A stretch of DNA of 64,000 nucleotides from Synechococcus sp. (GCA_047285805.1 JBJBCN010000002.1:128001-192000), one strand, 5' to 3'; shown: positions 7,502 through 37,587, numbered from the stretch's first letter. The notes: generated by a model from the letters alone, not told the origin. Numbers and translations: made by a program.

Positions 7502-8609
7502 AAGACTTAATTATTAGCAACCGCTCTTGGCTGCTCAGTGATGGTTTGAACAGAGTGCCGTAAATCAGATCTCCTTCTGCGCCTTGTCTAGCCACAATAT
7601 GAGTTGAAACCTACACATATATTGGACCAGATCAAAGCTCGCGGAAAGTTCAATTTTCTACAGAGAACCCTGTGGCTTAACCCCTTTCGCGATTCGTTCA
7701 AACCCTCTATGTTCAGTTCCTGAAGTAACTGGTTCCTAGGGTTTTGTCGGACAGTCCAACAGGTTTCGCCTTGCTGAGACAGGTCTCCGGGAGGCACTGT
7801 GCAGCGCCCTGGAGGCTGGCCAGCAGCCTGAGATCAATAAGGGATGAAGGTCGTTTGGAAGCCGATGCAGGCGCTCTTGGGAGCCAATCAGGAGGCTTGA
7901 CCACAGTCGATGCTCAAGCCCACGCAAAACGTTCAGATAACTACAAACGGCACGTCACTGTTGATGCGGCTGCTGGATTATCTGCTCACCACCTCCGGGT
8001 CGGGCAAGGGAGATAGCATAGGCGGGTTGGTACTCGTCTCTTTTTTGTCGGACTTTTCGCTGCTTCTGGGTTTAATTAGCGGACGCCTTTGCCAGTCCTG
8101 CTCAAGCTGGTCGTGGCGATCAAGGGCGTTTGGATTCATTGCAGGTCGTCCAGTACCGCCTACTGCTGGCATCACCTGTTATGGCCTTGCTAGCTGATCC
8201 CAGCGAATGGAAACCAGTTATGAGGGTGGGGTTAACTGGAATACTTCAGAGTAAGTGCAGATGGTTTAAAAATTTGCGGCAGAAACCCAAATCACTGGTC
8301 TCAATTCTTTTAATTGGTGGATCTCCTGAACTCCTGAACTCCTGGCTCTAGAGTCGCTACAGGTTGCATATTGATTTAAATCTAAACAATGACAAGCTGA
8401 TAGCCGGTCTTATGAGTAAGACTGGAATGCTTGTGGATTATTTATTGTTGAAGCATGTAGAAAAAATTTAAGACAATGAGAGGTGTTGGGTGGCTTACTG
8501 ATGGAGAGCTATTTATCTTGTCAATCTGCTTTTGACCAGATTTTGATATAAAAATACCACCGTATTCCTCTGATCTGGTGGCGGTTTGGTAAGTTTAGCT
8601 GTCAAGAGC

Positions 8610-10955
8610 CTAGAGAGGCTTTTTTGCCCAGAACTGGTACATTCCTATGAATGTTGAAGGATATTCTTTTTCAAAATCGCACCAATTTTCTAATGAGGTT
8701 AGTCCCTCATTGTCGGGATATCGCTGATGATAGAGATTTTTTATATTGTCTGCTAGCATGAACCCGCAGAATTCAAGATTTTGGCTGTCCAGAAGAGCAT
8801 TAAGTTCTATTGTTGTGAAACAATGCTCTTGTACATGGAAACACAAGTCTCGGCATTCGGAGAGCGAGTAAAAGTCTCTCACGCATTTAGGTAAATCCAT
8901 CAGCTCATTAATCTCGCCTCGCATTACCTTGCCTCTAAATTCTCGGATACCCTGCGGAGTACTTTCAATTCCTAATCTCTTGATTATTTTCTGTGCCCTC
9001 AAAATGATCTTACGTGCGGTAGTGCTATATAGGCCTAATTTGATGTATCCACCTGGCTTCAGCTGTTTAACTAGTGCAGACAGTCCGCTTGCAGGTCTTT
9101 CCATATGATGGAGGACGCCGCTACACTCAATTACATCAAAAGTTTCTTTTAGACTGGCGGCATTCAAGATATCCATCTTTTTAAACAATACATTTGTCAT
9201 ATTATACTCTGCTGTTTTCCTGATTGAATATGCGATGCTGCTACTGCTGAGGTCAATGGCTGTAACTTGAGCATTCTTATACCGACTTGTTTTTATAACT
9301 TGATCGCCGGTGCCGCAGCCGGCAATCAGTACTTTTGGTCTTTCCAGAGTAGAAGTTAATTCATGGTTGAAGGCAAGCCTATTCTTTGTCGATTCTCGTT
9401 TGATGACCTCTGATGCTTGCTTTGCGAGTGTGCTAGAGGTGTAGTCTGAATACCGGAATCTTGGATATGGATTTTCTTCGTACATTTCTTGTACGTGCTT
9501 CGAGACTGTATCATTGATGCTTTGATTTTGCTGGATGGATATTTTTATTTCTTTTTCTTTGAAGGGTTCTGTTAGGTGTGTCGCAATGAAGTCTTTGCTT
9601 TCAGTCCCAGAAAAGGAATATTGGCTAATTTGCGCCAAGTCTATATTGGCCAGATGCAATGGTGTATAACAGCCCACAGCTGCGATATATTTATTCATTT
9701 CTTCACGGCTTCCGGCAATCCTGCTGGTCAGTAGTGCTGTTAATTGTTCCTCTTCTTGCGACGTTGAATATACGTATTCATTCAAAAAACATTGCACAGC
9801 CAGGGCTTCTGTTAATGGTTTTAGTCTTGGTGGAATTAATCCTTCTTGAATTGTCAACCTCAGTATTTCTTCTCTTAGTCGAGTTAAGAATTGTTCGACA
9901 TCTGAGTTCGGAGGGATTATCAGAGTCAGGGATTTTCGAAATCTCCAATCGGAGGATAACCTGTAGAGAGCCCCATTGCTGTCAGAGACTATCTTTGCTG
10001 GAATGGATGCTTCTCGGATCGTAGGTAAATAGGCCTTCAGGAATATCTTTGATAGGCTTTGATGAGAGATATCTGTCCGGTTTAAAAGTAATTCATATGC
10101 CTTCATTGCGTCCTTGAAATTTGACGGTTGAATTTGGAGCTTCTCGACTATTATCTTTAAATTTTTCAATGCACTCGTCCAGTTCGATTTTAGCTCCAAG
10201 GAATGAAGTGTTGCGGCTAGAGCTTGATCGTTATCGTTTAGGTCTTGGTAGATAATTCCTAGGTTTAGATATGCATCAGGATTGTCAGGCTTGAGTTCGA
10301 GTGATCTAAGCGTGGAATCCAGTGCTCGATATGGTTCGTCGAGATTCTTATATATGATCCCCAGATGAACTAGGGCGTTGGGGTTGTTAGGTTTTAATTC
10401 TAACGATTTAAGAGTTGGGTTAAGTGCTTGATTGGGTTCGTTGAGGTGATTGAAGATGATTCCCAGGTTTAAAAGAGCGTTTGGGTTGTGAGGTTTTAGG
10501 TCGAGTGATTTAAGAGTGTGTTCAAGAGCTTTCTCGGTTTCGTCGAGGCTTTGGTAGATAGTGCCCAGATTCATATGAGCGTTTGGGTTGTCAGGTTTTA
10601 ATGTTATTGACTTAAGGGTGGTGGCCAAGGCCTGGTCCAGTTTGCCTAGCATTAGGTATGTATGGCCTAGGCTAAAGTATGCATCGGGGTGTTTTGGGTT
10701 TGCATTGATCCATGCTTGTTGTAGAGAGGCTGCCTCGGTGAAGCGACAGCTGCTTGTATAAATGATTCCCAGGTTTAGGAATAGAGAGTCATCTGTGCAC
10801 CCAAGCAGCATTGCATGCCTGTAAAGCTCCTCGGCTGTCTCCAGGTCTCCTTTTGTGTGGTGTCTAATACCGGATTCGAGCACGCTCTTTTTTTTTGGCA
10901 AGTTTTTTTTGCCGGATTTATTCTTGTTGTTTCTTTGCTTTCCGAACCCGCTCAT
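8610..10955 (-). CDS. TPR-repeat protein with C-terminal class I SAM methyltransferase
   Basis: Tandem 34-aa TPRs (LKPDNPNAHMNLG...), MYEENPYPR, VLIAGCGTG, SGVLHH, CRDLCFHVQE, MYQFW; AT-rich; likely start MSGFG. Confidence 0.9.
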   Translation of the reverse strand: MSGFGKQRNNKNKSGKKNLPKKKSVLESGIRHHTKGDLETAEELYRHAMLLGCTDDSLFLNLGIIYTSSCRFTEAASLQQAWINANPKHPDAYFSLGHTYLMLGKLDQALATTLKSITLKPDNPNAHMNLGTIYQSLDETEKALEHTLKSLDLKPHNPNALLNLGIIFNHLNEPNQALNPTLKSLELKPNNPNALVHLGIIYKNLDEPYRALDSTLRSLELKPDNPDAYLNLGIIYQDLNDNDQALAATLHSLELKSNWTSALKNLKIIVEKLQIQPSNFKDAMKAYELLLNRTDISHQSLSKIFLKAYLPTIREASIPAKIVSDSNGALYRLSSDWRFRKSLTLIIPPNSDVEQFLTRLREEILRLTIQEGLIPPRLKPLTEALAVQCFLNEYVYSTSQEEEQLTALLTSRIAGSREEMNKYIAAVGCYTPLHLANIDLAQISQYSFSGTESKDFIATHLTEPFKEKEIKISIQQNQSINDTVSKHVQEMYEENPYPRFRYSDYTSSTLAKQASEVIKRESTKNRLAFNHELTSTLERPKVLIAGCGTGDQVIKTSRYKNAQVTAIDLSSSSIAYSIRKTAEYNMTNVLFKKMDILNAASLKETFDVIECSGVLHHMERPASGLSALVKQLKPGGYIKLGLYSTTARKIILRAQKIIKRLGIESTPQGIREFRGKVMRGEINELMDLPKCVRDFYSLSECRDLCFHVQEHCFTTIELNALLDSQNLEFCGFMLADNIKNLYHQRYPDNEGLTSLENWCDFEKEYPSTFIGMYQFWAKKPL

Positions 10956-11024
10956 CTGACGCCTGAAATTCACCTAGCTTAATCCTTGTATGAATCACTC
11001 ACCTTCTCTTGATACTTTACTGCT

Positions 11025-11336
11025 TCAGAGCTGGCGCTTGCGTTCCAGCTTGCGCCGCAACCGTACGGTGATCTCCATCTCGACACTTTGTGAGAGGGGA
11101 TCCATCTCAAGGGGCAAGCGGGCAGCGACCTGCGCTAAGCAGATCGCGAGCAGTACTCCATCATTTTGATGAGCGGCACCAGGCCTCGCTAGGCCTTCCT
11201 CTTAAGTTGCTGGTGATAGAAGTCCCGTTGTCGATCACCGCGAACTTGAAGCAGACATCTTTGAGATCCTTTTCCCTGAGTGAGTTCTCGAGGATGTTCA
11301 GGTTCTCCTTTTGGTTATCTGAAGTAAGCCATGGTT
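11025..11336 (-). pseudogene. Degenerate IS607-family serine resolvase (TnpA) relic
   Basis: Manual translation in two frames: WLTSDNQKENLNILENSL...FAVIDNGTSI and VLLAICLAQ...SVEMEITVRLRRKL, resembling IS607 TnpA motifs (VSSxDQKxDL; LVFAICE; DVLEIITVF). Confidence 0.45.
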
Positions 11337-11406
11337 GAAATCTGCGGTTGTGCCGGAAGGGTTTCTCGGGAATGACTTTGATGTTTTGAGGGGTTCTTCA
11401 TAAAGG

Positions 11407-12876
11407 ATGGTGATTGTGAGATCGCCAGCTTTGATGGTCTGGATTGGCGCCCTCCTGGCTGGGCTGCTCGCCGGCGCGGCCCTACCTCCTTTGGGCTCGC
11501 CTCCCCTGCTGTGGCTCGCGCTGGTACCGCTCTGGGCCTTAGGGCCAGGGCCGGCGGCCCTTTGGGCTGGGGCGGTGGTCTTGCTCAGCCATCGCTGGTT
11601 GCTCTGGTTGCACCCCCTCGATTGGATCGGGGTGCCGCTTCCCTTGAGCCTGCCGCTCTGTCTCGTGCTCTGGTTGGCACTGGGGCTGCTGGGTGCGGCA
11701 TTGGTCTCCCTCTGGCGCGGGCTTGTCGGGCGCCTGGGGGCCAGCCGTTGGTCCGTGGCGCTATTGGCCTCTGCGCTCTGGGGCCTGGGCGAGGTCTGGA
11801 TGGCGAAGGGGCCGTTGTTTTGGCTGGGGTTGGGTTCAGCGGCCCTGCCCGGTGATCGCGCCCTGGCGGGACTGGCTCAGTGGGTCGGTGCTGGCGGGCT
11901 GGCGGCCCTGCAATTGTTGCTTGCTTGGGGGCTGTGGCGCCTGCTGGTCGCTTGGTGGGAGGGGCGACGGGGCCTCTGGCGCGGCGGCCTGGCTTGGATG
12001 TTGGTGGTGGCATTGCTGCATGGCCTGGGCTGGCAGCAGCTGCAGCGCAGCGCCCTGCCTGATCCGGCGGCTCCGTGGCTACCGGTGCTGGTGCTTCAGC
12101 CCGATATCCCCACCCGGGAGAAGTTCAGTTGGACCCAGCAGCGGGCCTTGGAGCGGCGATTGCGACAGGCCCTGGCGGAGGCGGAGGTCCAGGGCGCGGA
12201 CCTGTTGGTGCTGCCTGAGGGGGCTTTGGCTCCGGGGCAGGGGCTTCCTTCCCCAGGGGATGTGGAGGTGCTCAGCGGTGGCTTCCGCCAGGAGGAGCTT
12301 GAGCTGCGCAGCAGTGTTCTGCGCTTTTCTCCAGGGGCGCTGGAGGCGGAGGGGGCGATTGACAAACACCGGCTGGTGCCCCTGGGGGAATGGGTCCCCG
12401 GTGGGTCCCTCTTGCGTTGGGCGGGATTGTCCGCGGTCGGCGGTGTGGAGCCGGGGCCGGCCTCGCGGTTGCTGCGGCGCCCGTCGGGTGATCTGGCCGT
12501 CGCCATTTGCTACGAGATCGCTGATGGGGCGGGCCTGATCGCTGCGTCTCAGGCCGGGGCTGGCTGGATCCTGGCCAGCGCCAACCTGGACCCTTATCCG
12601 CGGCTGTTGCAGCAACAGTTCCAGGCCCTCTCCCAGCTGCGGGCAATCGAGGCCAGTCGCTGGTTGGTGAGTGCGGCCAATAGTGGGCCGAGCCTGGTGG
12701 TGCGGCCCGATGGGGCGTTGGGGTCGTCCCTGCCCCCGATGCAGCACGGGACGCTGCTTGTGCGCCTGCAACTCCGGTCGGGCGGGACCTTGTATGGCCA
12801 CCTCGCGGAATGGCCGCTGCTGCTGGCCGCCGCCGGAGGCTTCGCCGCAAGCCGGTCTCGCGTGAGACAGCCTTGA
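11407..12876 (+). CDS. lnt: Apolipoprotein N-acyltransferase
   Basis: Multi-TM N-terminus plus nitrilase triad motifs LPEGA, KHRLVPLGEW, ICYE; RAIE. Confidence 0.92.
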   Translation: MVIVRSPALMVWIGALLAGLLAGAALPPLGSPPLLWLALVPLWALGPGPAALWAGAVVLLSHRWLLWLHPLDWIGVPLPLSLPLCLVLWLALGLLGAALVSLWRGLVGRLGASRWSVALLASALWGLGEVWMAKGPLFWLGLGSAALPGDRALAGLAQWVGAGGLAALQLLLAWGLWRLLVAWWEGRRGLWRGGLAWMLVVALLHGLGWQQLQRSALPDPAAPWLPVLVLQPDIPTREKFSWTQQRALERRLRQALAEAEVQGADLLVLPEGALAPGQGLPSPGDVEVLSGGFRQEELELRSSVLRFSPGALEAEGAIDKHRLVPLGEWVPGGSLLRWAGLSAVGGVEPGPASRLLRRPSGDLAVAICYEIADGAGLIAASQAGAGWILASANLDPYPRLLQQQFQALSQLRAIEASRWLVSAANSGPSLVVRPDGALGSSLPPMQHGTLLVRLQLRSGGTLYGHLAEWPLLLAAAGGFAASRSRVRQP

Positions 12877-12888
12877 GACTTGCTTAAG

Positions 12889-13423
12889 ATGCCTTTGTTT
12901 TCCATCCGCTCTAGTTTTCTGGGTCTGGGCTTGGTGGCCGCCGCTGCGCTGCTTCCTGCGCCTGGACGGGGAGTGGATCGGGGGGGATGTGGTCCTGGAG
13001 GCCGCCAAGGGCTTGGGGGTTGTGGTGATTCAGCAGGCCCAGTGCGGCGGACCGCGGCAGCTCGCTACCTACAACATGGGCGCCAATGTCCTCTGTCTCT
13101 CGACTGAGCTCGAGCGTGACCCGCTTCTGCGGGTCACGCTGATCCAGCATGAGTTGGTGCATGTGGTGCAGGACTGCCTGGATGGCTTGGCGACGCCCAC
13201 ATCCCTGACCTTGGCGGAGGGTCTGCGCTCCAGCGGTCAGCTCAGCGGTGAGCAGGTGAATAGATTCTTCCTGCAGCACCTGCGCAAGCAGGGCAACTTG
13301 AATCACGTTGTGGCTTCAACGGTGCAGTTGCCCCTGGAGAGCCGTCAGCGTGAATTTGAGGCCTATGCCCTGCAGGCGGATCCGGCCATGGTGGCTTACC
13401 TGCTGAAGGTCACCTGTAAGTAA
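12889..13423 (+). pseudogene. Secreted HExxH (zincin-like) hypothetical protein split by a frameshift in a G7 tract
   Basis: Signal peptide MPLFSIRSSFLGLGLVAAAALLPAPG in one frame; HELVHVVQDC and REFEAY in the next; G7 run at 12980-12986. Confidence 0.65.
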
Positions 13424-16256: not shown

Positions 16257-16302
16257 TAAGTGGAGCCGAGGAGACTCGAACTCCTGACTCCATGCATGCC
16301 AT
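16257..16302 (-). repeat. att site: duplicated 3' half of tRNA-Ala
   Basis: 46-bp match to 37511-37556 with 3 mismatches. Confidence 0.93.
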
Positions 16303-17305
16303 TTAGGCGTTTCAGGAGGCAAAAATCCGTCCCTAGACTAGATTCTGACCAAATTATCACGAATTATTTGCGCAGAAGTGTGCGCAGATCTGTCCTGCCC
16401 TGATAACCGCTCTAGCGGCTGGTCTTGCACTGCTGAGGAAACCAGAGCCATAAACGCTTAGTAAGGGGCATGTGCCAGCGCCGTGATCCGAGGATGGGGG
16501 TGAATTCAGCACCCCCTCACCCAACACTCCCAGCTACTGAGCAGTGTGTCGGGGAGCTGTTGGGAGCTACTCCTCTTCTTCTTCCCAGCGTGAGCGTCGG
16601 TGAGCAGCGCACAGCTCACACCTGCACGGCAATACAAAGTCACCACCTATCCAGCAGCTGTAAGGGGGTTTGCGGCCACAAAAGGGCTAAATCCTCGTCG
16701 CTCGGACGGGTATTGAAACTCGTTTCCATTCCCAAATCGTGCACATAGATCGGCGATGGCGCCGTTAACCGCTATGGGCAGTGATATCAGAGGTATGTGC
16801 ACTGTCTGCTTGTGATTCGTGATGTCTTGCTTCAACATCACCGGCCGTCGCGAATGCGGCCACTCACAAAATACAAGATTCTCAGTATGAACTACGCGGC
16901 ATGATTGTCATCCCGTAAGCCGCCCTTAATCCGCTGATCCATACCCTCTTTCGCCAAACCTTGGTAGTCAATGACCAGCTCACTGCAGCAGCTTGGGAGG
17001 GCAAAGAGGTCTGGACAATCGCGCAACGAGAGTTGACGCTGCTCGATATCCGCGACGCTTACTTCAGAGCCTGGCGATGGCATTCGGACATAGGTCGCAG
17101 TGCTAAAGCGATGATCTCAAATCTCGATTTCCCAGCAAGCAACGTCTTCGTTTGCGAGTCAAGAAATGACCGGAGCACAACGCTTTCTCCCAGGCCCAGC
17201 AGGAGAATCCGGCAGAACTACGAATTCAAAAACAGATCGGTATTTCCCCTCTCTCACCATGAAGACGAGGCATCGTTATCTCAGGAAAACAAGTCCGTCT
17301 GCACC

Positions 17306-22748: not shown

Positions 22749-23317
22749 TGCTTCTTAGCTAAATGACGTGAATAGGGCTCAAAGCAACTATGCGTCCGTA
22801 GGCAAGTACACAAGCCGGAAACTTGAAAGTGGACTAAACAGAAGCGTCGAAGTCCTTTCAGTATTGTGGCAACCAGCGAAGGAATGCTATGAGCCGCCCG
22901 CCTGGCTTTCTGCATCGTAGTGAAGCTTTCATCGACTAGAGCGCCCCGATACCAGTCACTCCCTTCGCGAAGTCGGCATCGTCCGCTAGCTCAATGCGCT
23001 GGTAGCTGTCGCTCCATAGCAATGGCCTGGGGATGGGTTGCTGTAATTGACACTCGCCAATATCGCGATTGATTAAGTCGACAAAGCTAGTGATCCATCT
23101 ATTGACAGGGCCAGTCACAGATGCTGGAGGCAAATGCTGCTTGTCCTGACTACGGCTCTTCGTGTAGGCGTAGGTGGCGCCTCTTCACGAAGAGATCGCA
23201 CAGCGCCCCTGCTGTCGCGCTCAGGTCTTTTCTGAATTTGGAATGTCTTGAACATGACATTCCTCTAGCGCTTGCTGTATCCGACGCGCCTTAAGGCTGA
23301 GAGCCGCAATCTCTTCG

Positions 23318-23536
23318 TCAAGGTATGGCGCTCGCGTCGGCTGAGGTCTGTGGCATCCACGTCCTCACCGATTCGCTGCCATGCCCGCTTGAGCAACCGG
23401 TAAGCCTGGCGGCAGCTGTCCCCCCCCACTCCTGTGACGAATGGGCGACACAGGCGGAGTTGGACGAGTCCTCCAGCAGCATCAGCTGCAGGATGTCGAT
23501 CCGCTCAGCGATGGCGGAGGTCGTAGCCCTAGCCAT
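23318..23536 (-). pseudogene. Truncated copy of the element HTH protein (paralogue of 31596-31952)
   Basis: MARATTSAIAERIDILQLMLLE...QEWG matches MARATAATIADRVETLQEKILE...REWG, then diverges. Confidence 0.7.
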
Positions 23537-23690
23537 CGGCTTTCTCCCGCCAGAGGTGCATCAACAGCTCGCGCTGAGCCAGGTCCAGGCCCACCCCCAG
23601 CCAGGGCAACAGCTCCGGCAGTGAATCAGTGGAGAGTTCGAGGGTGCCTGTCATGGCCTGGGTCCCCACAGCGAGGTCGGAATGGATCAC
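23529..23690 (-). CDS. 53-aa element protein, copy 1
   Basis: Manual translation from GTG: MIHSDLAVGTQAMTGTLELSTDSLPELLPWLGVGLDLAQRELLMHLWREKADG. Confidence 0.7.
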   Translation of the reverse strand: MIHSDLAVGTQAMTGTLELSTDSLPELLPWLGVGLDLAQRELLMHLWREKADG

Positions 23691-24389: not shown

Positions 24390-24731
24390 TTACTGGCGCT
24401 CCTGGGGATGATCTGACAGTCCGACGATCCAGTCAAGCTGCCCGACGCTAGCCGCCAGTGCCCCTGGCTGATTTGTGTGCAGGCACATTTGGCAGCCTTC
24501 CAACAGCAAGTTGATCACCTGGGCGGTCAGAGCCCTCCTGTCCCACCCCGATTCTTCGTAGTCATCACGAAACAGGTCGAAGGCGTCAGCCACGGCGCGC
24601 TGGGCAGTCCTGCGACTGCAGGGTCCGCCCCCTACCCCCTGCGACAGAAACGTCACGACGGCACTGGGGCTTTTCCCCTTGTGGAGGAGGTCCAGAGCGT
24701 CTTCAGCGCGGGCTGCGGTGCGTTTCTTCAT
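24390..24731 (-). CDS. Element HTH protein (distant paralogue of 31596-31952)
   Basis: SRRTAQRAV, DRRALTAQ, NQPGAL...LDWIVGL align with the paralogue. Confidence 0.7.
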   Translation of the reverse strand: MKKRTAARAEDALDLLHKGKSPSAVVTFLSQGVGGGPCSRRTAQRAVADAFDLFRDDYEESGWDRRALTAQVINLLLEGCQMCLHTNQPGALAASVGQLDWIVGLSDHPQERQ

Positions 24732-24889: not shown

Positions 24890-25173
24890 CTGCCCAGCAC
24901 CCCGTTGAGCGAATCCAGCTCGCTGTCGAGCAGAGAACACTCTGCGGCGACCTCACGCTCTGCCCTGGCGACCTTCTCGTTGAGGTCATCCCGCTTGGCT
25001 GTCAGCTCCGCGATGCGGGCTTCGACCTGGTTGTAGACCGCCGGCTTGCTGCAGAGCCGCGGCAGTTCTTCCAGCCAAAACCGCTCAAGTCATGCCGGGG
25101 GCAGTCCAGAGGCGCTGGGGTCGCTCAGGAGCTGCTTGTCGCGATCGTTGAGGACAGCATCCAGGGCACGGCT
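24886..25173 (-). pseudogene. 5'-truncated coiled-coil element gene with an internal stop
   Basis: ...DPSASGLPPA*LERFWLEELPRLC...LNGVLGR*; its stop overlaps the GTG of the next gene. Confidence 0.5.
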
Positions 25174-25196
25174 GTAATCGCCCCCATCAACCCGCA

Positions 25197-25290
25197 GCCA
25201 ATCAGCGCAGGGGCAACGACCTCCGCTGGACGGCAGAAGAAGGCATGGGGCAGGGCTGAGCAGTCCTTAGTGATGGGCTGGATGGCTATG
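25197..25290 (-). pseudogene. 5' fragment of 3-methyladenine DNA glycosylase (MPG family), copy 1
   Basis: ALPHAFFCRPAEVVAPALIGC resembles the MPG N-terminus. Confidence 0.6.
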
Positions 25291-25403
25291 GGAGTGGCTT
25301 CTGGTCTCCCTTCAGCTTGCTGACGACCAATCAACTGCTCTAAGCCCAGTGGCAATGGTGGATTTCCTGGCGAAACTCCCGCCAGAAGTTGAGCGCGAGC
25401 GCA

Positions 25404-26441
25404 ATGCAGCAGTCCACTCGCCTGAGCCTCTCCCTCACTGGTGCAGCTGCTTTGGCACTGGCATCAATGCCTCAGGTGAGCGCAAAGCCTGCAGTGGTGG
25501 CGCAAGGGAGCGCGGAAGACCTTGGTGTGATGCGCATCCGCCTCAAGGATGTGGTCAAACCGCAGGTTGGAGTTCAAGGTCAAACTCAAGCGGCTGGTAC
25601 CCCGAATGAGGCAGGCATTGGCGGCTTTATGCCGCTGGTGGTGGGAGAGAACAGCGTTTTCTTTGCTGATGTGCTGGCGAATGCGAACTTCGCGGACTGG
25701 GGCAACAGCAGCAGCATCATCAATACGAAGGTGGCGGGTCCCACCATCAGCACGTCATCCAGGCTTGGGTATCGCTGGCTGAATGGTGACCGCAGTTGGA
25801 TGTTTGGTGTCAACGGTGGGTATGACACCCGACCGATGGCAACGGGTGATGCCGATACAGGTGTTGCGGTCTCTGGTCAGCGGACAGTCTTTTTCCAGCA
25901 GGCAGCGTTTGGCTTGGAGGCAGTGAATGATGACTGGAGCTTCAATGCCTATGGATTAATACCAACTGGAACAACGGAATACAGGTTGAATAGTGCTTAC
26001 AACGGGGGAGCACTGGATACGTATGGGTTTGATGCGGGCTACAGCATCACGCCAGAGTGGAAGCTGAGTGTTGGCTATTACTACCAGAATGGCGACCTCA
26101 ATACAGCTGATGGCTCAGGCGTGCTGGGGCGACTGGCTTACAGCATCAATGAGGGAGTAACGGTTGGCACCAATCTGTCTTATGACAGCGCGTTTAAGTC
26201 ACGCTTCTCAGCTGACATTAAGTGGCGGTTCAATACGGCAGGAATTTCGCAAAGCGAGAAGCAGAAGAAAGCGTGGGAGAAGCCAACGATTAAGGCATTA
26301 ACTGAGAGCGTGAAGAATAGGGATGTACGGGTGCACGATACGACCTGGTGTAATACCCCAGGCGGGGAACCGGGAGTATTAGTAAATACCCCTAGAACCG
26401 GGAAGTCTGTGTGTGTCACGATTAGACCCGCCCCAATGTAG
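25404..26441 (+). CDS. Outer-membrane beta-barrel, inverse-autotransporter (intimin/invasin beta-domain)-like, with a 33-aa C-terminal peptide
   Basis: Signal peptide, amphipathic strands, RLGYRWL...WMFGVNGGYD, QQAAFGLE, NAYGLIP, linker ESVKNRDVRVHD. Confidence 0.75.
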   Translation: MQQSTRLSLSLTGAAALALASMPQVSAKPAVVAQGSAEDLGVMRIRLKDVVKPQVGVQGQTQAAGTPNEAGIGGFMPLVVGENSVFFADVLANANFADWGNSSSIINTKVAGPTISTSSRLGYRWLNGDRSWMFGVNGGYDTRPMATGDADTGVAVSGQRTVFFQQAAFGLEAVNDDWSFNAYGLIPTGTTEYRLNSAYNGGALDTYGFDAGYSITPEWKLSVGYYYQNGDLNTADGSGVLGRLAYSINEGVTVGTNLSYDSAFKSRFSADIKWRFNTAGISQSEKQKKAWEKPTIKALTESVKNRDVRVHDTTWCNTPGGEPGVLVNTPRTGKSVCVTIRPAPM

Positions 26442-26465
26442 GGTGAGCCTAACCACCCAACGCCC

Positions 26466-26493
26466 AAAGCCCCTGTAACCGCAGGGGCTTTTT
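26466..26493 (+). terminator. Intrinsic terminator after barrel gene 1
   Basis: aaagcccctg-taaccg-caggggcttttt. Confidence 0.85.
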
Positions 26494-26745
26494 ATTTCTT
26501 CAGTCACACCAATAAGCCAGCAAATCAGCATCCAATACCTGGCACCATCGCCTTCGGCTCAGCCCAATGGCAGGTCACTCACGGCATTCTTTGCCTCATC
26601 GCAAGACCACAAGACACACCAAAGCTATCCTCAATATCTTTATCCCTACTTCTATCCTTATTTTCTCAACGCATTCACCAATAACTTCGCTCTCTATCGC
26701 CATCATTGATGCCATTGGTGCGTCTAAACATCACCGTCACCTGAT

Positions 26746-26838
26746 GCCAATCAGCTCAGGGGCAACGACCTCCGCTGGACGGCAGAAGAAGGCGTGGGGC
26801 AGGGCTGGGAAATCTCTGGTGACGGGCGGGGTGGCTAT
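26746..26838 (-). pseudogene. 5' fragment of MPG-family glycosylase, copy 2
   Basis: DFPALPHAFFCRPAEVVAPELIG. Confidence 0.6.
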
Positions 26839-26951
26839 GGGAGTGGCTGCTGGTCTCCCTTCAGCTTGCTGACGACCACCCAACTGCTCTAAGCCCTGTG
26901 GCAATGGGGGATTTCCTGGCGAAACTCCCGCCAGAAGTGAGCTCAAGCGCA

Positions 26952-27941
26952 ATGCAGCAGTCCATTCGCCTGAGCCTCTCCCTCACTGGTGCAGCTGCTT
27001 TGTCACTGGCATCAATGCCTCAGGTGAGCGCGATACCTGCCGTGGTGGTGCAAGGGAGCGCGGAAGACCTTGGAGTGATGAGCATCCGCCTCAAGGATGT
27101 GGTGAGACCGCAGGTAGGAGTTCAAGGTCAAACCCAAGCGGCTGGCACCCCGAATGAGGCAGGCATTGGCGGCTTTGTGCCGCTGGTGGTGGGAGAGAAC
27201 CGTGTCTTCTTTGCTGATGTGCTGGCGAATGCGAACTTCGCGGACTGGGGCAACAGCAGCAGCCTCATCAACACCAAGGTGGCTGGCACCACCATCAGCA
27301 CGTCATCCAGGCTTGGGTATCGCTGGCTGAATGGTGACCGCAGTTGGATGTTTGGTGTCAACGGTGGGTATGGCACCCGACCGATGGCAACGGGTGATGC
27401 CGATACAGGTGTTGCGGTCTCTGGTCAGCGGACAGTCTTTTTCCAGCAGGCAGCGTTTGGCTTGGAGGCAGTGAATGATGACTGGAGCTTCAATGCCTAT
27501 GGATTAATCCCAACTGGAACAACGGAATACAGGTTGAATAGTGCTTACAGCGGAGGAGCACTGGATACGTATGGGTTTGATGCGGGCTACAGCATCACGC
27601 CAGAGTGGAAGCTGAGCGTTGGCTATTACTACCAGAATGGCGACCTCAATACAGCTGATGGTTCAGGGGTGTTGGGGCGACTGGCTTACAGCATCAATGA
27701 GGGCGTAACGGTTGGCACTAACCTGTCTTACGACAGCGCGTTTAAGTCACGCTTCTCGGCTGATATTAAGTGGCGTTTTAATACGGCAGGAATTTCGCAA
27801 AGCGAGAAGCAGAAGAAAGCGTGGGAGAAGCCTACGATTAAGGCATTAACTGAGAGCGTGAAGAACAGGGATGTGCGGGTGCACGATCCAGATATATATA
27901 CCATTTGCATGTTTCACCTTTCATATACATACTGTGGGTAG
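26952..27941 (+). CDS. Second inverse-autotransporter-like beta-barrel with a different 17-aa C-terminal peptide
   Basis: Near-identical to 25404-26441 up to RDVRVHD, then an unrelated tail. Confidence 0.75.
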   Translation: MQQSIRLSLSLTGAAALSLASMPQVSAIPAVVVQGSAEDLGVMSIRLKDVVRPQVGVQGQTQAAGTPNEAGIGGFVPLVVGENRVFFADVLANANFADWGNSSSLINTKVAGTTISTSSRLGYRWLNGDRSWMFGVNGGYGTRPMATGDADTGVAVSGQRTVFFQQAAFGLEAVNDDWSFNAYGLIPTGTTEYRLNSAYSGGALDTYGFDAGYSITPEWKLSVGYYYQNGDLNTADGSGVLGRLAYSINEGVTVGTNLSYDSAFKSRFSADIKWRFNTAGISQSEKQKKAWEKPTIKALTESVKNRDVRVHDPDIYTICMFHLSYTYCG

Positions 27942-27952
27942 CCTGACCACCC

Positions 27953-27981
27953 AAAGCCTTTGCGTTTGCAGGGGCTTTTTT
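27953..27981 (+). terminator. Intrinsic terminator after barrel gene 2
   Basis: aaagcctttgc-gttt-gcaggggctttttt (with G-U pairs). Confidence 0.75.
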
Positions 27982-28382
27982 ACTTCTTCAGTCACGCCAA
28001 TAAGCCAATAAGCCAGCCTCCAATACCTGGCACCTTCTTCATCAACGCAACCTGATGACAGACCCATAAGGGCACTGAGCGCCTTATCGCAAGACCGCAA
28101 GACACACCAAAACTATCCCCAATATATTTCTCCCGGCTTCTATCCTCATTCCCTCAACGCATTCACCAATAACTTCCCTTTCTATCGCCATCACGTATGC
28201 CATTGGCTCGTTTAAACCTCACTGCTATCTGGTGCTACTCGTCAGGGATTTGATTGAGCCGCATAGCAAGCGCAAAAGGTAGTTGCTTCTGCCCTGGCGA
28301 TACATGCTTGCGATTCCATGTGTTTCTGGCTATTGTTTTGGTCTTTGGTTTAGCGTAATTCTGCAATAGGGGGTCGCGCCTG

Positions 28383-28670
28383 GTGGTGTCTGTTTCTGAT
28401 TTTGACAAACGCTTTAAGCGCAGTCCACTTGTTGTTTGCAGTGAGCTTGATGGTCAAATCACTTTATTTCAGAGCAGTACTTGTGACTACTTAGTGCTTA
28501 ATGAAACCGGCTCTGCGATCTGGGATGCATTGCATTCGCCTAAGACGCTCGAGCAGATTTGTGAAAAACTCTTGGCGGAATATGAAGTCACTCCTGAGCA
28601 GTGCCGGATGAGCGTGGAGGAGTGGCTTTCAATCGCAATCGCAAAAGAAATTATTGCTTTAGTCCGATGA
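28383..28670 (+). CDS. PqqD family / RiPP recognition element (lasso B1-like)
   Basis: SELDGQITL, YLVLNETGSAIWDAL..PKTLEQICEKLLAEYEVTPEQC. Confidence 0.9.
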   Translation: MVSVSDFDKRFKRSPLVVCSELDGQITLFQSSTCDYLVLNETGSAIWDALHSPKTLEQICEKLLAEYEVTPEQCRMSVEEWLSIAIAKEIIALVR

Positions 28671-28709
28671 TCTGGTGGTAAATATTATTGCTAGGGGGGT
28701 AGATAAAAG

Positions 28710-29252
28710 CTAGAAGGTGAATGTTGTTTTTAGCGCTAGTGCCCATATTTCGCTCTTGACTTTATTCTGTCCAACCATCTTGAATCCATGCCGCGCAAAA
28801 TATCGCCTCATAGATGCGTTTCGCAGGCCTGGGTTGACATTCGCTGTCAATAAATGTCTTGCTCGATGATCTCTGTTTAGGTTGTCGTTTTTAAACTCTC
28901 TGAGGAATGTCGTATAGAGCTGATTGCTCAGTCTTGGGGCGCGATGGTCGGGAAGGACATACATTCTTTGAAAGTAGGCGTGGCTTCCTAGATGCAGTTC
29001 TGAGTCTAGTGTTCGAAGGGAGACAAAAACGATTCCGGTAATCCGGCCCAGTGAATCTCGGGCTGTGGCAGCTGTGTGTATACTTAATGGTCGAAAAGCG
29101 GATCTTTGATTGATCGTTGAGATGGTTGTTGATTCTTTGAATCTCCTGAGCTCAGATTGGTAGGATTCCAGATTGGTATCCCAGAACTCCTTAAGTTCTG
29201 ACTTGAGCTCATCATTAATGGCTCCGAAGATATAGTCAACTGTGAACGTCAC
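28710..29252 (-). CDS. Hypothetical protein with a probable GNAT-like fold
   Basis: YFQRMYVLPDHRAPRLS (motif A-like), NPGL...YFARHGF. Confidence 0.55.
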   Translation of the reverse strand: MTFTVDYIFGAINDELKSELKEFWDTNLESYQSELRRFKESTTISTINQRSAFRPLSIHTAATARDSLGRITGIVFVSLRTLDSELHLGSHAYFQRMYVLPDHRAPRLSNQLYTTFLREFKNDNLNRDHRARHLLTANVNPGLRNASMRRYFARHGFKMVGQNKVKSEIWALALKTTFTF

Positions 29253-30134
29253 TTATTGATTCGTTGGTCCCGTGTAGCCAAAGCGCTTCATGGTTGCCGA
29301 CAGATTCTTTTCCAATCTTTGGCGCTGCTCGATCGTCAGTTGCTCTGCGCCCTCTCCCGTTCGCCCTGAGCGAAAGAACCGTTCACAACCGGCAGGTTTT
29401 TCTGCAAAGCCATCCACATCCTCCTCGAGCTTTTTCAGTCGATCAATGGAGGTGTTGTCTAAAGCCTTCTGAATGAGATTAGGCTCATTAGGAAGACCCA
29501 AGAATTTGACTAAGTTTGTAAACGTCTTCAATCCCTTTGCCAACATGTCTTCATAACGCATGATCAAGACTGGCAGTTGAGTTTGATCGGCCCAGGACCT
29601 CACATGCTGATCCCAGCGGCCCATGTGCTGCCGCACTTGGTGGCTACCAAAGCGCTCCCCTGGCACCAGAGCTGCATTGTGATCTAGCAGATGATCAACA
29701 CAACGCTCCAATGGCCATGAAAAGAAGTGGCTAAGTGATACGGCCACATCTTCTGGGTGGCGCAGGATATAAACAACACCAGAGCAGCCTGTTGTACTCA
29801 CCACTGGGCGCCCACGGGAATCAGGTGACTTGAATGCATCATGCACTTTGTGAAAGCGCTCTCCTTCGGCGAATAGCCACGGACTGGCACCAGCACGTCC
29901 GCGCAACGGATCAAGTTCACTAAAACTTAGATCACAACTATTGATTCCCAATTGATCGTCTAGCCATAGCCTGGAAGAGGCAATCGCTCCAGTTTCAATA
30001 TCTTGATTAAGGTTTAATTCTTCCCTAGGTTTGTCTCCGGCTAGACGCAACAGCTCAGTGATAAATACCCGGCACCAGGTGTTGCCTGATTTGGGATAAG
30101 AAGCGAGATACCAGTAACTGTAGTTGTCAGTCAT
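29253..30134 (-). CDS. Sulfotransferase (PAPS-dependent)
   Basis: LASYPKSGNTW (5'-PSB), YILRHPEDVAVS (3'-PB), RYEDM, FFRSGRTG. Confidence 0.92.
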   Translation of the reverse strand: MTDNYSYWYLASYPKSGNTWCRVFITELLRLAGDKPREELNLNQDIETGAIASSRLWLDDQLGINSCDLSFSELDPLRGRAGASPWLFAEGERFHKVHDAFKSPDSRGRPVVSTTGCSGVVYILRHPEDVAVSLSHFFSWPLERCVDHLLDHNAALVPGERFGSHQVRQHMGRWDQHVRSWADQTQLPVLIMRYEDMLAKGLKTFTNLVKFLGLPNEPNLIQKALDNTSIDRLKKLEEDVDGFAEKPAGCERFFRSGRTGEGAEQLTIEQRQRLEKNLSATMKRFGYTGPTNQ

Positions 30135-31242
30135 TGCTGGCGACTACTTCCTTGTCCTCGCTCTGCTGTTGAATCGATTCTGGTTGCATCAGGTCCACCT
30201 TCTTGAGACTTTCGGCCATTACTTTGATTCCATCTGGAACCACTAAGGCATGCACCGCAACCGATCTCGCTAACGCAGCTGCCTGCATAAAGAGCTGTGC
30301 TTCTGCCTCCATGCCGCGATACATTCTGGCGTGAAAGGCCTGGTTGCGCAGTCTCATTAATGCGGCTGTTTGTGAGAAACTGCGTGAAGCCCTGATAGAT
30401 GGTTTTGCCTTGTTAACGCCTTCTTCAGTGTCATTCTCTTTAACCGATTCTTCTTTAGCCCGATTTAAATTATAGACGAGTCGCAATGGTGTTGGCTGTG
30501 GCATGCAAGTTAAATCTTCAGCTAGCAGTGCATAGCGCTTTAGACCCTTCCGTACCGGTGGTAGCTGCGCCCAATTTAGATCCAATGCCATAGCTGCGTC
30601 ATGCCAGAGCTTGAGTTGATGCATCCCTGGCTGCACAATCCCATCGTTGCCAATGGCAACAAGTTCACTACTGAGTAGGCGCCACCCTTCTTGAAGTAGA
30701 CACCAGGCCAAGGTGGACTTGCCAGCAGCTGGATGGCCCATTAGGAGGATGGCCTCACCATCACGCTCCAGTGCTGTTCCATGCAACACCAATAAACCAC
30801 GCTGGATCGCCAACGCCCCGAGCCCACTGGTGACAGCAAACGTACGAATGTCGCGATCGCTGACGCTGTCGTCCCAGCGCTGCCATTCCAAACATTCACC
30901 ACCCGTGGCACGAAACCAGCCAATACCTTCTAGTTCCAGGCGCCAATCTTGCTGTGCTAACTGCAACGTCGGCGTGCTGTGAGGGCTCGGCTCAAGGCTG
31001 GGCCATTGCTGGTGATCAGCTTCCTTCAGCTCCACTAGCGTCTCACTGCCGGCGAGTGGAACTGCATCGGCTGGCATCAACTCCGGCAAAACCAACGACG
31101 ACGACAGCAGCATCCCGAAAGCTTGATAGGTTCCAGGAGTCGCGGCAGCCATCAGCTCAAGAACTGGCGTTGCGATGTCAATGCTCTCATCTCTGCGCGT
31201 TTTAATCGCGCAATCGATGCCAATATGAACAATCGCGTTCAA
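30127..31242 (-). CDS. HPr kinase-like P-loop kinase (lasso-peptide-cluster type)
   Basis: QRGLLVLHGTAL, Walker A GHPAAGKSTLA, LLSSEL, LKLWHDA; start may be ATG 31152. Confidence 0.85.
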   Translation of the reverse strand: MNAIVHIGIDCAIKTRRDESIDIATPVLELMAAATPGTYQAFGMLLSSSLVLPELMPADAVPLAGSETLVELKEADHQQWPSLEPSPHSTPTLQLAQQDWRLELEGIGWFRATGGECLEWQRWDDSVSDRDIRTFAVTSGLGALAIQRGLLVLHGTALERDGEAILLMGHPAAGKSTLAWCLLQEGWRLLSSELVAIGNDGIVQPGMHQLKLWHDAAMALDLNWAQLPPVRKGLKRYALLAEDLTCMPQPTPLRLVYNLNRAKEESVKENDTEEGVNKAKPSIRASRSFSQTAALMRLRNQAFHARMYRGMEAEAQLFMQAAALARSVAVHALVVPDGIKVMAESLKKVDLMQPESIQQQSEDKEVVASND

Positions 31243-31441: not shown

Positions 31442-31603
31442 TTGATTCATTCAGACATTCTCAAAGGTGCTCAAGCACTAAACCATTCATTAGAGATCAG
31501 GTCCGAGTCCCTTCCAGAGCTTTTCCCGCTCTTCGCAGTTGGTCTGGTCATCACTCAGCGCGAGCTGTTGATGCACCTATGGCGCCATGAGGTCGATGGC
31601 TAG
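31442..31603 (+). CDS. 53-aa element protein, copy 3
   Basis: IHSDILKGAQAL...SLPELFPLFAVGL...QRELLMHLWR. Confidence 0.7.
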   Translation: MIHSDILKGAQALNHSLEIRSESLPELFPLFAVGLVITQRELLMHLWRHEVDG

Positions 31604-31952
31604 AGCAACCGCTGCCACCATTGCTGACCGGGTCGAAACCCTTCAGGAGAAGATCCTGGAGGGGACATCGAACACCGTCTGTCTCGCCTATGCGCGACGT
31701 GAGTGGGGGGTCTCAAGGGCTCAGGGCTACCGACTGCTCAAGCGGGCGTGGCAGCAGATCGCCGAGGACATTGATCGTGTCGGGATCGACCGGCGCGAAA
31801 TGTTGAGCTGGGCTATCCACCAGCTCCAGTCAGCGGCTGGGCTGGCCCTCAGTCAGAAGAACCCTGGAGCGGTGGTCGGTGCCATCAGGGAGATGGATGT
31901 ACTGCTTGGGCTTGGCGCCAGCAGCAACGCCCGTGGCCAGCGGTGGCGCTGA
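31596..31952 (+). CDS. Element HTH protein (possibly terminase small subunit-like or a regulator)
   Basis: YARREWGVSRAQGYRLLKRA HTH-like segment; overlaps the upstream gene. Confidence 0.7.
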   Translation: MARATAATIADRVETLQEKILEGTSNTVCLAYARREWGVSRAQGYRLLKRAWQQIAEDIDRVGIDRREMLSWAIHQLQSAAGLALSQKNPGAVVGAIREMDVLLGLGASSNARGQRWR

Positions 31953-36049: not shown

Positions 36050-37381
36050 CTAGATGGATTCCCTGGGTATGTCAAGGGTCGCCAAGGTGCACCAGGGATT
36101 AATTCCATTGTTGGATCCTATTTGTAGCTTCGCTACTGCATCTTTCAGCCCCGCGTCATCTACCCATCGTCCGTAAGTTGAGTGGTGGACTTGTGGGCTG
36201 TGTCCCATGAGTGCTGCTGCATCTCTGATCGCCATGGGTCGGTCGTAAGCCTTGTGCGCCCGCCATGCCCACCCGTGCCGAAGGCTGTATGGCGTCAGGC
36301 CGGGATGTTTCGCCACCAGCGACTGCCAGGGCTTGTATCGCTCTAGTTGTTGGCGGAACTCATCACCAACAGGCTTCCAGCCTTTCTCGTCCACTGTGTT
36401 GATGCGTTTCAGCAGTGCCGCTGGGAACTGGACCATCCCGCTGCGCCACAACGCCAGTATTCGCTGCCCCTCGCCCTCGCGTCCAGGGATGTCCAAGGGT
36501 TGAACAAGTCGGGGCGCTTTCACCCGCTGCCTCAGTGTCTTGCTGTTGCGTTTGACGGTGCTTCGGACCTTCAGGTCACCGTCTTCAACCACCAAGGCGC
36601 CCAGTTCGGCTGGTCGGAGCCCGTAGAGCCCAACTAGTGCCGTCGCCAGCATCAAGCCCACCTTGTCGTCAGCACGCATTGCGTCCAGGAGATTCCCTAG
36701 GTCCTCGGGCATCACCGGCGGGGTCAGGGCGTACTCGGTTGGTCGGTCGTCCGCCCCGACTAGCTCTCGGACTTCCTCCCGTTCCAGAGGCAGCCATCGC
36801 TGGTCGTATCCGAAGTGCTTAACGGCAAAGCGCAGAAGCCCGGAAACGTTGTTGAGCTGCGTGACCCGTCCGCTTCCCCCAGGGCGGCATTGAGCGAAGT
36901 GCTGTGCGGCATAGCAGCGCATCAGTTGACTTCCGTCTCTCGGGCGCGGCTTGCGGTCCAGGGTCTCCAGTACCCGCTGCATGTGGCAGTTCAGATCCTT
37001 GAGGGTTGTTCCACGACGGTTGGCTCGTGAGGCAATGAATTCCTCCACCACCAGCGGCCACCCTTGATCTGCCACGGGCTTGGAGGACGTCGCCGGAGCT
37101 GCCTCTCTGGCGCTCCATAGCGCCTTCGCATCAGCCAGGGAGCAATGCCGGCTATCCACCAGCTCTTTGATGCTGCAGACCGCCGTGAGGATCGCTGCGG
37201 AGTCGGTGGCGGACCATCCCGTGCCCAGCATCACGCTCTGCCTGGGATTCGCCTGCTGCCTGCCCTCGTTGAAGCGCCTTGTGAGCTGGCAATCACCATT
37301 GCGCTCGGCAATGCCCCAGCCGGGTCCGCAGGAGTGCTTGATCTGCCGTCTCAAGCCCTGAAACCACTGTTCCCGACTCAT
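36050..37381 (-). CDS. Tyrosine recombinase / integrase
   Basis: GLRPAEL (R), YSLRHGWA, LMGHS, HSTYGRW (Y); adjacent to the tRNA att. Confidence 0.93.
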   Translation of the reverse strand: MSREQWFQGLRRQIKHSCGPGWGIAERNGDCQLTRRFNEGRQQANPRQSVMLGTGWSATDSAAILTAVCSIKELVDSRHCSLADAKALWSAREAAPATSSKPVADQGWPLVVEEFIASRANRRGTTLKDLNCHMQRVLETLDRKPRPRDGSQLMRCYAAQHFAQCRPGGSGRVTQLNNVSGLLRFAVKHFGYDQRWLPLEREEVRELVGADDRPTEYALTPPVMPEDLGNLLDAMRADDKVGLMLATALVGLYGLRPAELGALVVEDGDLKVRSTVKRNSKTLRQRVKAPRLVQPLDIPGREGEGQRILALWRSGMVQFPAALLKRINTVDEKGWKPVGDEFRQQLERYKPWQSLVAKHPGLTPYSLRHGWAWRAHKAYDRPMAIRDAAALMGHSPQVHHSTYGRWVDDAGLKDAVAKLQIGSNNGINPWCTLATLDIPRESI

Positions 37382-37479
37382 GTGCGCAGAAATTTCCCCA
37401 TGCGCAGAATCATGCGCAGAAGTGGGGTTCTCTGGGATGCCCCAGGTAGGACAACATGCGCAGATGCTGCGTCCTAGGC

Positions 37480-37506
37480 ACAAAAAAACCCAGTCAGTGA
37501 CTGGGT
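37480..37506 (-). terminator. Element-supplied terminator after tRNA-Ala
   Basis: Minus strand acccagtcactgactgggttttttt. Confidence 0.75.
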
Positions 37507-37514
37507 CCTCTAAG

Positions 37515-37587
37515 TGGAGCCAAGGAGACTCGAACTCCTGACCCCCTGCATGCCATGCAGGTGCTCTACCAGCTGAGCTATGGCCCC
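37515..37587 (-). tRNA. tRNA-Ala (GGC)
   Basis: GGGGCCATAGCTCAGCTGGTAGAGCACCTGCATGGCATGCAGGGGGTCAGGAGTTCGAGTCTCCTTGGCTCCA folds as a cloverleaf. Confidence 0.97.

Follow-up and report, generated by a model that had tools for sequence, protein, structure and literature searches.

Among the described systems closest to the locus reported here are the paeninodin-type lasso peptide clusters, in which an RRE (a recognition element for peptides that are made on the ribosome and modified after translation, RiPPs) is accompanied by an HprK-like kinase, a sulfotransferase and a nucleotidyltransferase (PMC8498205, available in part). Discrete lasso RREs bind the pattern [Y/W]xxPx[L/V/I/A/F/Y] as an extended strand, the Trp being nearly invariant in paeninodin types and a Lys three residues before it anchoring the leader (PMC13381572, also available in part). 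The linear polyphosphorylated peptides (LPPs) of the latter source are cyclase-free, use accessory parts of lasso type and combine a conserved RRE motif with a variable C-terminus; their precursors are soluble, 35-200 aa long and bear YxxP, and they are phosphorylated by a kinase active on Ser3, cleaved by a signal-peptidase-like enzyme and sent out by MsbA-like export. Inverse autotransporters (type Ve; intimin, invasin; PF11924) consist of a 12-stranded barrel, a periplasmic helical turn, an Arg-bearing pore linker and a C-terminal passenger. In intimin the turn carries a proline kink and leads into the Arg-bearing linker through the pore (PMC13078405, in part), and cyanobacterial members have been described as barrel-only (PMC3008723; PMC4943183), the available parts of both papers making no mention of a hypervariable paired-Cys tail or an RRE motif. 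Prochlorosin genes are multi-copy, constant at the 5' end and hypervariable at the 3' end; they have a hairpin, and a tnpA-REP gene, either full or truncated, converges on them, its causal role having been left open (bioRxiv 10.1101/2020.03.09.984088). Here we describe a locus at positions 25404..31242 of a 64,000-nt stretch of Synechococcus sp. DNA (GCA_047285805.1 JBJBCN010000002.1:128001-192000; hereafter the window), in which two outer-membrane barrel genes with hypervariable tails stand beside a cassette of PqqD/RRE, GNAT-like, sulfotransferase and HprK-like genes. Our reading, to which we give a probability of about 0.58, is that the surface barrel is itself an RRE-guided precursor, modified on its tail.

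The two tandem barrel genes lie on the plus strand at 25404..26441 (barrel 1, 345 aa, with a Sec-type signal peptide by inspection) and 26952..27941 (barrel 2, 329 aa from its ATG). They are 96% identical over their first 312 residues and part company right after NRDVRVHD (DNA positions 26339 and 27887), ending in tails of 33 aa (26340..26438, plus strand; 2 Cys, 5 Thr) and 17 aa (27888..27938, plus strand; 2 Cys, 2 Thr, 3 Tyr). Downstream stand a stand-alone PqqD/RRE gene (28383..28670, plus strand; PF05402, E 1.5e-15; best NCBIfam model the lasso B1 type, under its cut-off) and, convergent with it on the minus strand, genes for a GNAT-like protein (28710..29252; PF13508, E 0.002, under cut-off), a sulfotransferase dependent on 3'-phosphoadenosine-5'-phosphosulfate (PAPS) (29253..30134; PF00685, E 2e-17) and an HprK-like protein (30127..31242, likely start 31152; TIGR04352, E 2e-13, under cut-off). 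A first-pass annotation had picked out the near-identical barrels with their different short Cys tails, the RRE gene and the convergent tailoring genes, and had placed all of them in a mobile element, which is borne out; its statement that pqqD directly follows the barrels was wrong, as 441 bp containing a hairpin and a TnpA-REP 3' remnant lie between the end of barrel 2 and the start of pqqD.

Compared with the paeninodin type, the locus has homologous RRE, kinase and sulfotransferase genes and a WxxP leader motif, and picocyanobacterial lasso-type clusters are the nearest relatives of the cassette. The cassette differs in that cyclase, B2 protease, ABC exporter, nucleotidyltransferase and free precursor are all missing, that the kinase Asp-Asp is replaced, that there is an extra GNAT-like gene, and that the motif sits inside a membrane protein of 330-350 aa. 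A discrete RRE and a WxxPx[LIV] motif on a linked product are thus shared with lasso clusters, whereas the macrolactam synthetase, the B2 protease, the free precursor ending in Ser and the kinase Asp-Asp are not. From the LPPs the barrels differ in precursor, protease and export, and the cassette in its kinase. The barrel system would work like an RRE pathway of the paeninodin/LPP type and belongs to neither the lasso nor the LPP class. Unlike intimin and invasin, its barrels bear no immunoglobulin-like passenger, and unlike prochlorosin genes the cargo is an outer-membrane barrel rather than a Nif11 leader, with even Cys numbers that suggest disulfides rather than lanthionines.

By predicted fold the barrels are of the intimin/invasin kind and hence inverse autotransporters (type Ve). 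A model built with 40 homologs has 12 strands, two short helices (residues 285-291 and 294-300) and then an extended segment; its best Foldseek matches are intimin (4E1S, E 1.6e-11; TM score 0.78 by target) and invasin (4E1T, E 3e-11), with the next match at 2.7e-7, and hhalign gave 96% between the barrel and a locus protein that has a PF11924 match. In Pfam the barrel stays below the gathering cut-off, leaving the family unnamed by Pfam alone; it was missed by sequence searches of the PDB too and came up in the fold search alone. By analogy with intimin, P294 may be the kink and R306 the linker Arg, which would place the start of the variable part near the outer pore mouth, and the fold together with the paired Cys suggests that the tail is a C-terminal passenger exposed at the surface. 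With 2243 matches when 8000 candidates were scored, the family is a large one, and databases misname it 'carbamoyl-phosphate synthase L chain'; viral contigs searched with two patterns gave no barrel relative. The source genome, which is 100% complete, holds 11 barrel copies, four of them broken, with a single cassette and only one PqqD. Six further barrel genes, three of them broken, occupy 19 kb at G000:C2:1134824-1153079, two of them with tails near-identical to that of barrel 1, and this block is a recent duplication in decay.

Throughout the family the sequence is constant through RDVRVHD and then gives way to unrelated tails. The 165 distinct tails measure 2-226 aa (median 28), and only six have an odd number of Cys, against 75.7 +/- 6.4 in shuffles, while Cys makes up 0.04% of the barrel body; even counts of this kind point to selected disulfide loops, presumably formed outside the cytoplasm. 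Lanthionine rings as the main role of the Cys were considered and rejected, the counts being even in Thr-rich tails too (odd in 1 of 85). Variable tails with paired Cys characterize the entire barrel family, and the greater part of that family stands without a cassette. Contigs from public runs diverge from the window at 26339-26341 and at 27887 and rejoin it at the hairpin, although these may be paralogs of the same organism. Barrels of two backgrounds, from different genera (L131 in genome G453 and L014 in genome G041), share a near-identical 16-aa tail, which argues that tails move between barrels. The G041 barrel gene has an internal TAG.

The cassette's association with barrels was surveyed in 400 genomes drawn from the family. 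Sulfotransferase matches occur in 28 of them; those of the close type (69-92% identity; 18 genomes) invariably lie within the four-gene PqqD/GNAT/sulfotransferase/kinase cassette, while ten genomes have only the distant type (39-62%), of which the examined loci are lasso-like. Barrel matches are present in all 18 cassette genomes (weakly in G193), against 67 of the 400 overall and none of the ten with a lasso-type sulfotransferase only. Among 21 cassette copies, that of the window genome included, four stop at a contig edge, and in 16 of the 17 others the position just upstream of pqqD is taken by a barrel or the 3' part of one, which a TnpA-REP gene or remnant often separates from pqqD. Of 18 metagenome contigs, seven extend far enough and all seven carry a barrel, some being duplicates of genomes already counted. 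Linked barrels are mostly 57-70% identical to those of the window and have different flanking genes, and the cassette proteins fall to 43-60% identity with the layout retained. No macrolactam synthetase (asparagine-synthase-like C protein) occurs in the cassette loci; queries with NTP transferases and ABC proteins gave no match in barrel-type loci, a signal-peptidase-like protease not having been searched for separately. No convincing free precursor is present in 31 barrel-type loci (some of them duplicates), while lasso-type sister loci have free precursors with a WxxP motif in 10 of the 11 loci of one set, the eleventh being found separately; these are 40-60 aa long and most end in Ser. The first-pass annotation had noted the lack of cyclase, B2 protease and free precursor, and had named a consistent link of the cassette to cyclases and short precursors as the outcome that would count against it; the cassette is instead tied to barrels, and the source genome has no PF13471 (B2 protease) match. 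Its two asparagine synthases of full length are far from the locus, at distances of about 90 and 290 kb.

Other cassette loci offer further observations. Genome G162 has three cassette copies (L141, L142), two of them tandem-duplicated and one with a stop in the sulfotransferase, and also lasso-type clusters (L155), so that two kinds of WxxP reader occur together. In G115 the intact cassette has beside it another set in decay, made up of fragments of sulfotransferase, GNAT and barrel (L137:13367-14587), and a LodA/LodB-like oxidase pair lies upstream of another cassette (L056:3753-6843). In two distant cyanobacteria (L019:12866-15262, minus strand; L022:4570-7395, plus strand) a lasso-like cluster that also has a short YxxPxL precursor containing two Cys begins with an inverse-autotransporter barrel whose passenger is a long beta-helix; those barrels have no W motif, and the arrangement possibly hints at how barrel and cluster first met.

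Cassette and barrel are also joined by a motif of the paeninodin RRE-binding type on the cassette-linked barrels, a feature newly noted here. The predicted periplasmic turn of these barrels contains KKxWxxP[TV]I (26265..26291, plus strand, in barrel 1, K288-I296 with W291; 27813..27839, plus strand, in barrel 2), a putative RRE docking site by the published consensus (PMC13381572, in part). With a pattern fixing only the W/Y, the Pro and the aliphatic residue, matches numbered 26 of 27 among linked barrels, 17 of 34 among unlinked ones in cassette genomes and 3 of 63 in cassette-free genomes; adding 15 barrels read by hand gave 19 of 41 and 3 of 71 for the latter two. At most five barrel matches per genome were scored and part of these fetched, which makes this a sample short of a full census. 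Although the two Lys lie outside the pattern, 83 and 84 of 85 barrels retain them, and motif and tail are 22 residues apart in 104 of 106. In the source genome 5 of 11 copies bear the motif, and a six-frame search with KKxWxxPx[ILVM] returned six matches, five of them barrels. On a quick tree of 117 barrel bodies built with the motif region left out, the motif requires 14 changes, at least six of them forced by strong branches. A predicted complex of PqqD and barrel residues 275-312, each entered as an alignment, did not discriminate: it scored 0.52, against 0.49 for a control with an unrelated chain 1. Taken together, the sequence evidence makes it probable that PqqD targets the barrel through this internal motif. 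The first-pass annotation had suggested that the barrel C-terminus is the precursor; the RRE-type motif lends support to the barrel in that role, although the motif is not in the tail itself but about 22 residues ahead of it, within the predicted turn.

Composition offers a clue to what the cassette may do to the tail. Thr reaches 10.7% behind the motif against 5.3% elsewhere among tails from genomes (42 vs 76) and 12.4 against 4.9% in a non-overlapping set from protein matches (44 vs 109), with a permutation p of 0.0005 in each; 23 residue classes were tested, and the tails are not independent. Motif tails are lower in Asp+Glu and no different in Ser, Tyr and Cys, and the Thr excess is present in three barrel backgrounds and absent in two small ones. 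Sulfation of Tyr is accordingly not favoured (3.8 vs 3.7%). All four cassette genes are under purifying selection. The sulfotransferase has intact motifs and is the most conserved of them (ratio of nonsynonymous to synonymous substitution, dN/dS, 0.08), and PAPS can be made, as the source genome encodes an adenosine-5'-phosphosulfate (APS) kinase. The HprK-like protein retains an HprK/PEPCK-like fold and, in the window, the P-loop Lys-Ser-Thr, with Asp-Asp changed to Ser-Glu (codons at about 30664-30669). The Asp-Asp pair, reported as important for catalysis by BsfK (PMC10368454, in part), is replaced in 27 of 27 barrel-type motif strings. The GNAT-like gene occurs only with the barrel-type cassette among the loci examined, and in its product the usual acetyl-CoA-binding glycines of motif A are not evident. 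RRE-stimulated, cyclase-free modification has a precedent (PMC10368454; PMC13381572, both in part), and we consider modification of the tail by the cassette somewhat better than an even bet. Since the kinase has lost its Asp-Asp while the sulfotransferase is intact and the most conserved, sulfation is likelier than phosphorylation, and we would rank sulfation of Thr first and its phosphorylation second; that sulfation is the main change is a tentative proposal. The phosphorylated, sulfated or acylated tail of the first-pass annotation is in this respect doubtful for phosphate and more credible for sulfate, and its interpretation as a whole is partly supported.

The reading that we favour would run as follows. 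The barrels would be pared-down inverse autotransporters, with nothing more for a passenger than a short hypervariable peptide that disulfides close in the periplasm and that stays at the outer pore mouth. One lineage of paeninodin-like lasso clusters would have shed its cyclase, B2 protease, exporter and free precursor and would now serve a subset of barrels, the leader motif KKxWxxPx[IV] having been placed in the periplasmic turn 22 residues ahead of the tail. PqqD may bind this motif on the unfolded cytoplasmic pre-protein and recruit the enzymes to the tail. Because an RRE needs an extended strand, and the motif in the folded barrel is helical and periplasmic, binding would have to precede folding, in the cytoplasm with its ATP and PAPS. 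There the intact sulfotransferase could O-sulfate threonines, and the kinase homolog, lacking Asp-Asp, would be either an adaptor that binds ATP or an altered Thr kinase. No RiPP protease would cleave the product, Sec and BAM would stand in for the ABC exporter, and one cassette would serve motif-bearing paralogs in trans. Tails would be swapped between RDVRVHD and the conserved hairpin, in a layout like that of prochlorosin cores facing TnpA-REP, and the purpose, speculatively, may be a changeable anionic surface signature against phage or grazers, or for recognition. In its fullest form, a RiPP pathway with an outer-membrane autotransporter as precursor, an uncleaved RRE site, a pseudokinase adaptor, a displayed disulfide library sulfated on Thr and TnpA-REP-linked recombination that rewrites the peptides, the proposal falls somewhat short of even odds. 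Modification before export has precedents in the AIDA-I and TibA passengers, which AAH and TibC glycosylate in the cytoplasm before Sec export, and tyrosine sulfation of RaxX is a case of a bacterial peptide sulfated by a neighbouring enzyme. We know of no RRE, leader-like motif or hypervariable peptide library in those systems.

Several findings weigh against this reading, and many of them would suit a rather improbable alternative, that barrel, TnpA-REP and cassette merely travel together in islands, the cassette acting on some other target, either envelope polysaccharide or a peptide that escaped notice, and inheritance accounting for both motif and Thr bias. Kinases of the cassette fall into a single clade nested among the lasso-type kinases of picocyanobacteria, so that the cassette has a single origin and counts over kin overstate the association. 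Integrases lie near several copies, and TnpA-REP faces cassette-free barrels also. Dependence runs one way, 49 of 67 barrel genomes having no cassette, and the G115 cassette is an exception, with only a broken barrel, beyond the kinase. As to the motif, one linked barrel lacks it, the Pro and the next hydrophobic residue are ancestral features of the turn (KKxW alone is new), and three cassette-free genomes (G194, G369, G453) have motif barrels and no PqqD match. Kin-corrected tests on independent pairs, underpowered at only 6-9 pairs, leaned in the right direction without reaching significance: for motif and cassette the result was 3.1 vs 0.5 in 6 pairs (median p 0.375), and for motif and Thr-rich tail 1.6 vs 0.8 (median p 1). 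The barrel model has moderate confidence (pLDDT 65, about 55 in the tail). Thr is absent from 5 of 42 and 3 of 44 motif tails, no acceptor position is conserved in them, and a C-terminal Ser acceptor as in paeninodin had to be rejected, motif tails having no C-terminal Ser; the nearest solved sulfotransferases (Teg12 and StaL, glycopeptide aryl sulfotransferases) act on phenols, yet Tyr is not enriched. Shared travel alone does not readily account for a motif that appears on several barrel backgrounds, is rare in cassette-free genomes and fits the recognition consensus of sister RREs on free precursors, nor for the want of an alternative precursor near the 31 loci and the constancy of the layout while the cassette proteins diverge.

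Two further possibilities keep the barrel as RRE target. The tail could be clipped at the surface, making the barrel the export leader of a diffusible disulfide peptide with a signalling or antimicrobial role; the tails do look like free disulfide peptides, and the layout parallels prochlorosin leader and core genes. We nevertheless hold this to be the least likely of the alternatives, as the cassette has no protease and the genome no B2 match, the first tail residues are not conserved, and intimin-type passengers remain attached (PMC13078405, in part). It is likewise improbable that the kinase homolog remains active and puts phosphate on Thr rather than Ser, sulfation or acylation taking a secondary place. 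Its His and P-loop Lys-Ser-Thr are kept in most homologs at a dN/dS of 0.22, Glu could replace one Asp, and BsfK accepts Thr (PMC10368454, in part), the residue enriched in motif tails; on the other side, Asp-Asp is kept in none of 120 close homologs (one has Ser-Asp), though 19 of 19 lasso-type strings keep it.

Diversification of the tails has a counterpart in the prochlorosin genes, which have the same layout and nearly the same hairpin (bioRxiv 10.1101/2020.03.09.984088, whose main text does not mention barrels). In the window, conserved hairpins resembling the procA/tnpA-REP intergenic hairpin, and terminator-like too, follow barrel 1 (26466..26491, plus strand) and barrel 2 (27953..27978, plus strand). 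TnpA-REP (Y1) transposase 3' remnants lie on the minus strand facing barrel 1 (26669..26752; tblastn E 1e-5) and between barrel 2 and pqqD (28157..28312), where many relatives have a full-length gene. The prochlorosin pattern, a convergent tnpA-REP or 3' remnant and a conserved hairpin after a hypervariable 3' end, is therefore present here. The hairpin follows 9 of the 11 source-genome barrels, 66-130 nt from RVHD, and a looser pattern follows 47 of 114 other barrels, so it is common rather than universal, and it may be a mere terminator. A barrel lies within 1.5 kb in 12 of 30 tnpA-REP loci, with or without the cassette, and none of the 11 Nif11-domain matches of the source genome is beside the hairpin.

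The module is real and recurrent, and apparently undescribed: our literature search, outside which most subscription papers fell, found no description of a barrel/RRE-cassette system, and the available parts of PMC10783134 mention no lasso, PqqD, RRE or sulfotransferase, nor those of PMC4949707 invasin, intimin or autotransporter. If our reading is true, RRE-guided peptide chemistry is joined to type V secretion, the membrane keeps the precursor, and picocyanobacteria run a natural, chemically modified surface-display library. It gives a hypothesis of function for a large, multi-copy, misannotated picocyanobacterial family, proposes what the orphan sulfotransferase of paeninodin-like clusters may act on, and supplies a testable pseudokinase. 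A natural display scaffold with a portable modification tag would also be of engineering interest. Independently of the cassette, a second, unrelated family with hairpin, TnpA-REP and 3' hypervariability makes the diversification of prochlorosin cores directly testable.

The locus lies in an integrative element of about 21 kb bounded by a 51-nt direct repeat (16257-16307 and 37511-37561), with an integrase-like gene beside tRNA-Ala. The left att-like copy is at 16257..16307; the right copy falls within the target, tRNA-Ala(GGC) (37514..37587, minus strand), next to which is the tyrosine-integrase-like gene (36053..37483, minus strand; weak PF00589 match, E 0.05). A conserved segment upstream of barrel 1 (25190..25403) was duplicated along with the barrel (second copy 26739-26951), and remnants of it precede several barrels of the source genome. 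Its opposite-strand translation (25125-25355 and 26746-26904, both minus) gives a possible gene start, which we take to resemble the beginning of a 3-methyladenine DNA glycosylase. Small related open reading frames (ORFs) without a family match lie at 31587-31952 (plus), 23310-23627 (minus) and 24390-24731 (minus), partly as a 206-nt inverted repeat, and have further paralogs elsewhere in the source genome. Outside the element, the window has a second low-GC stretch (42%) at 8000-11000 and a strong skew at 10000-13000.

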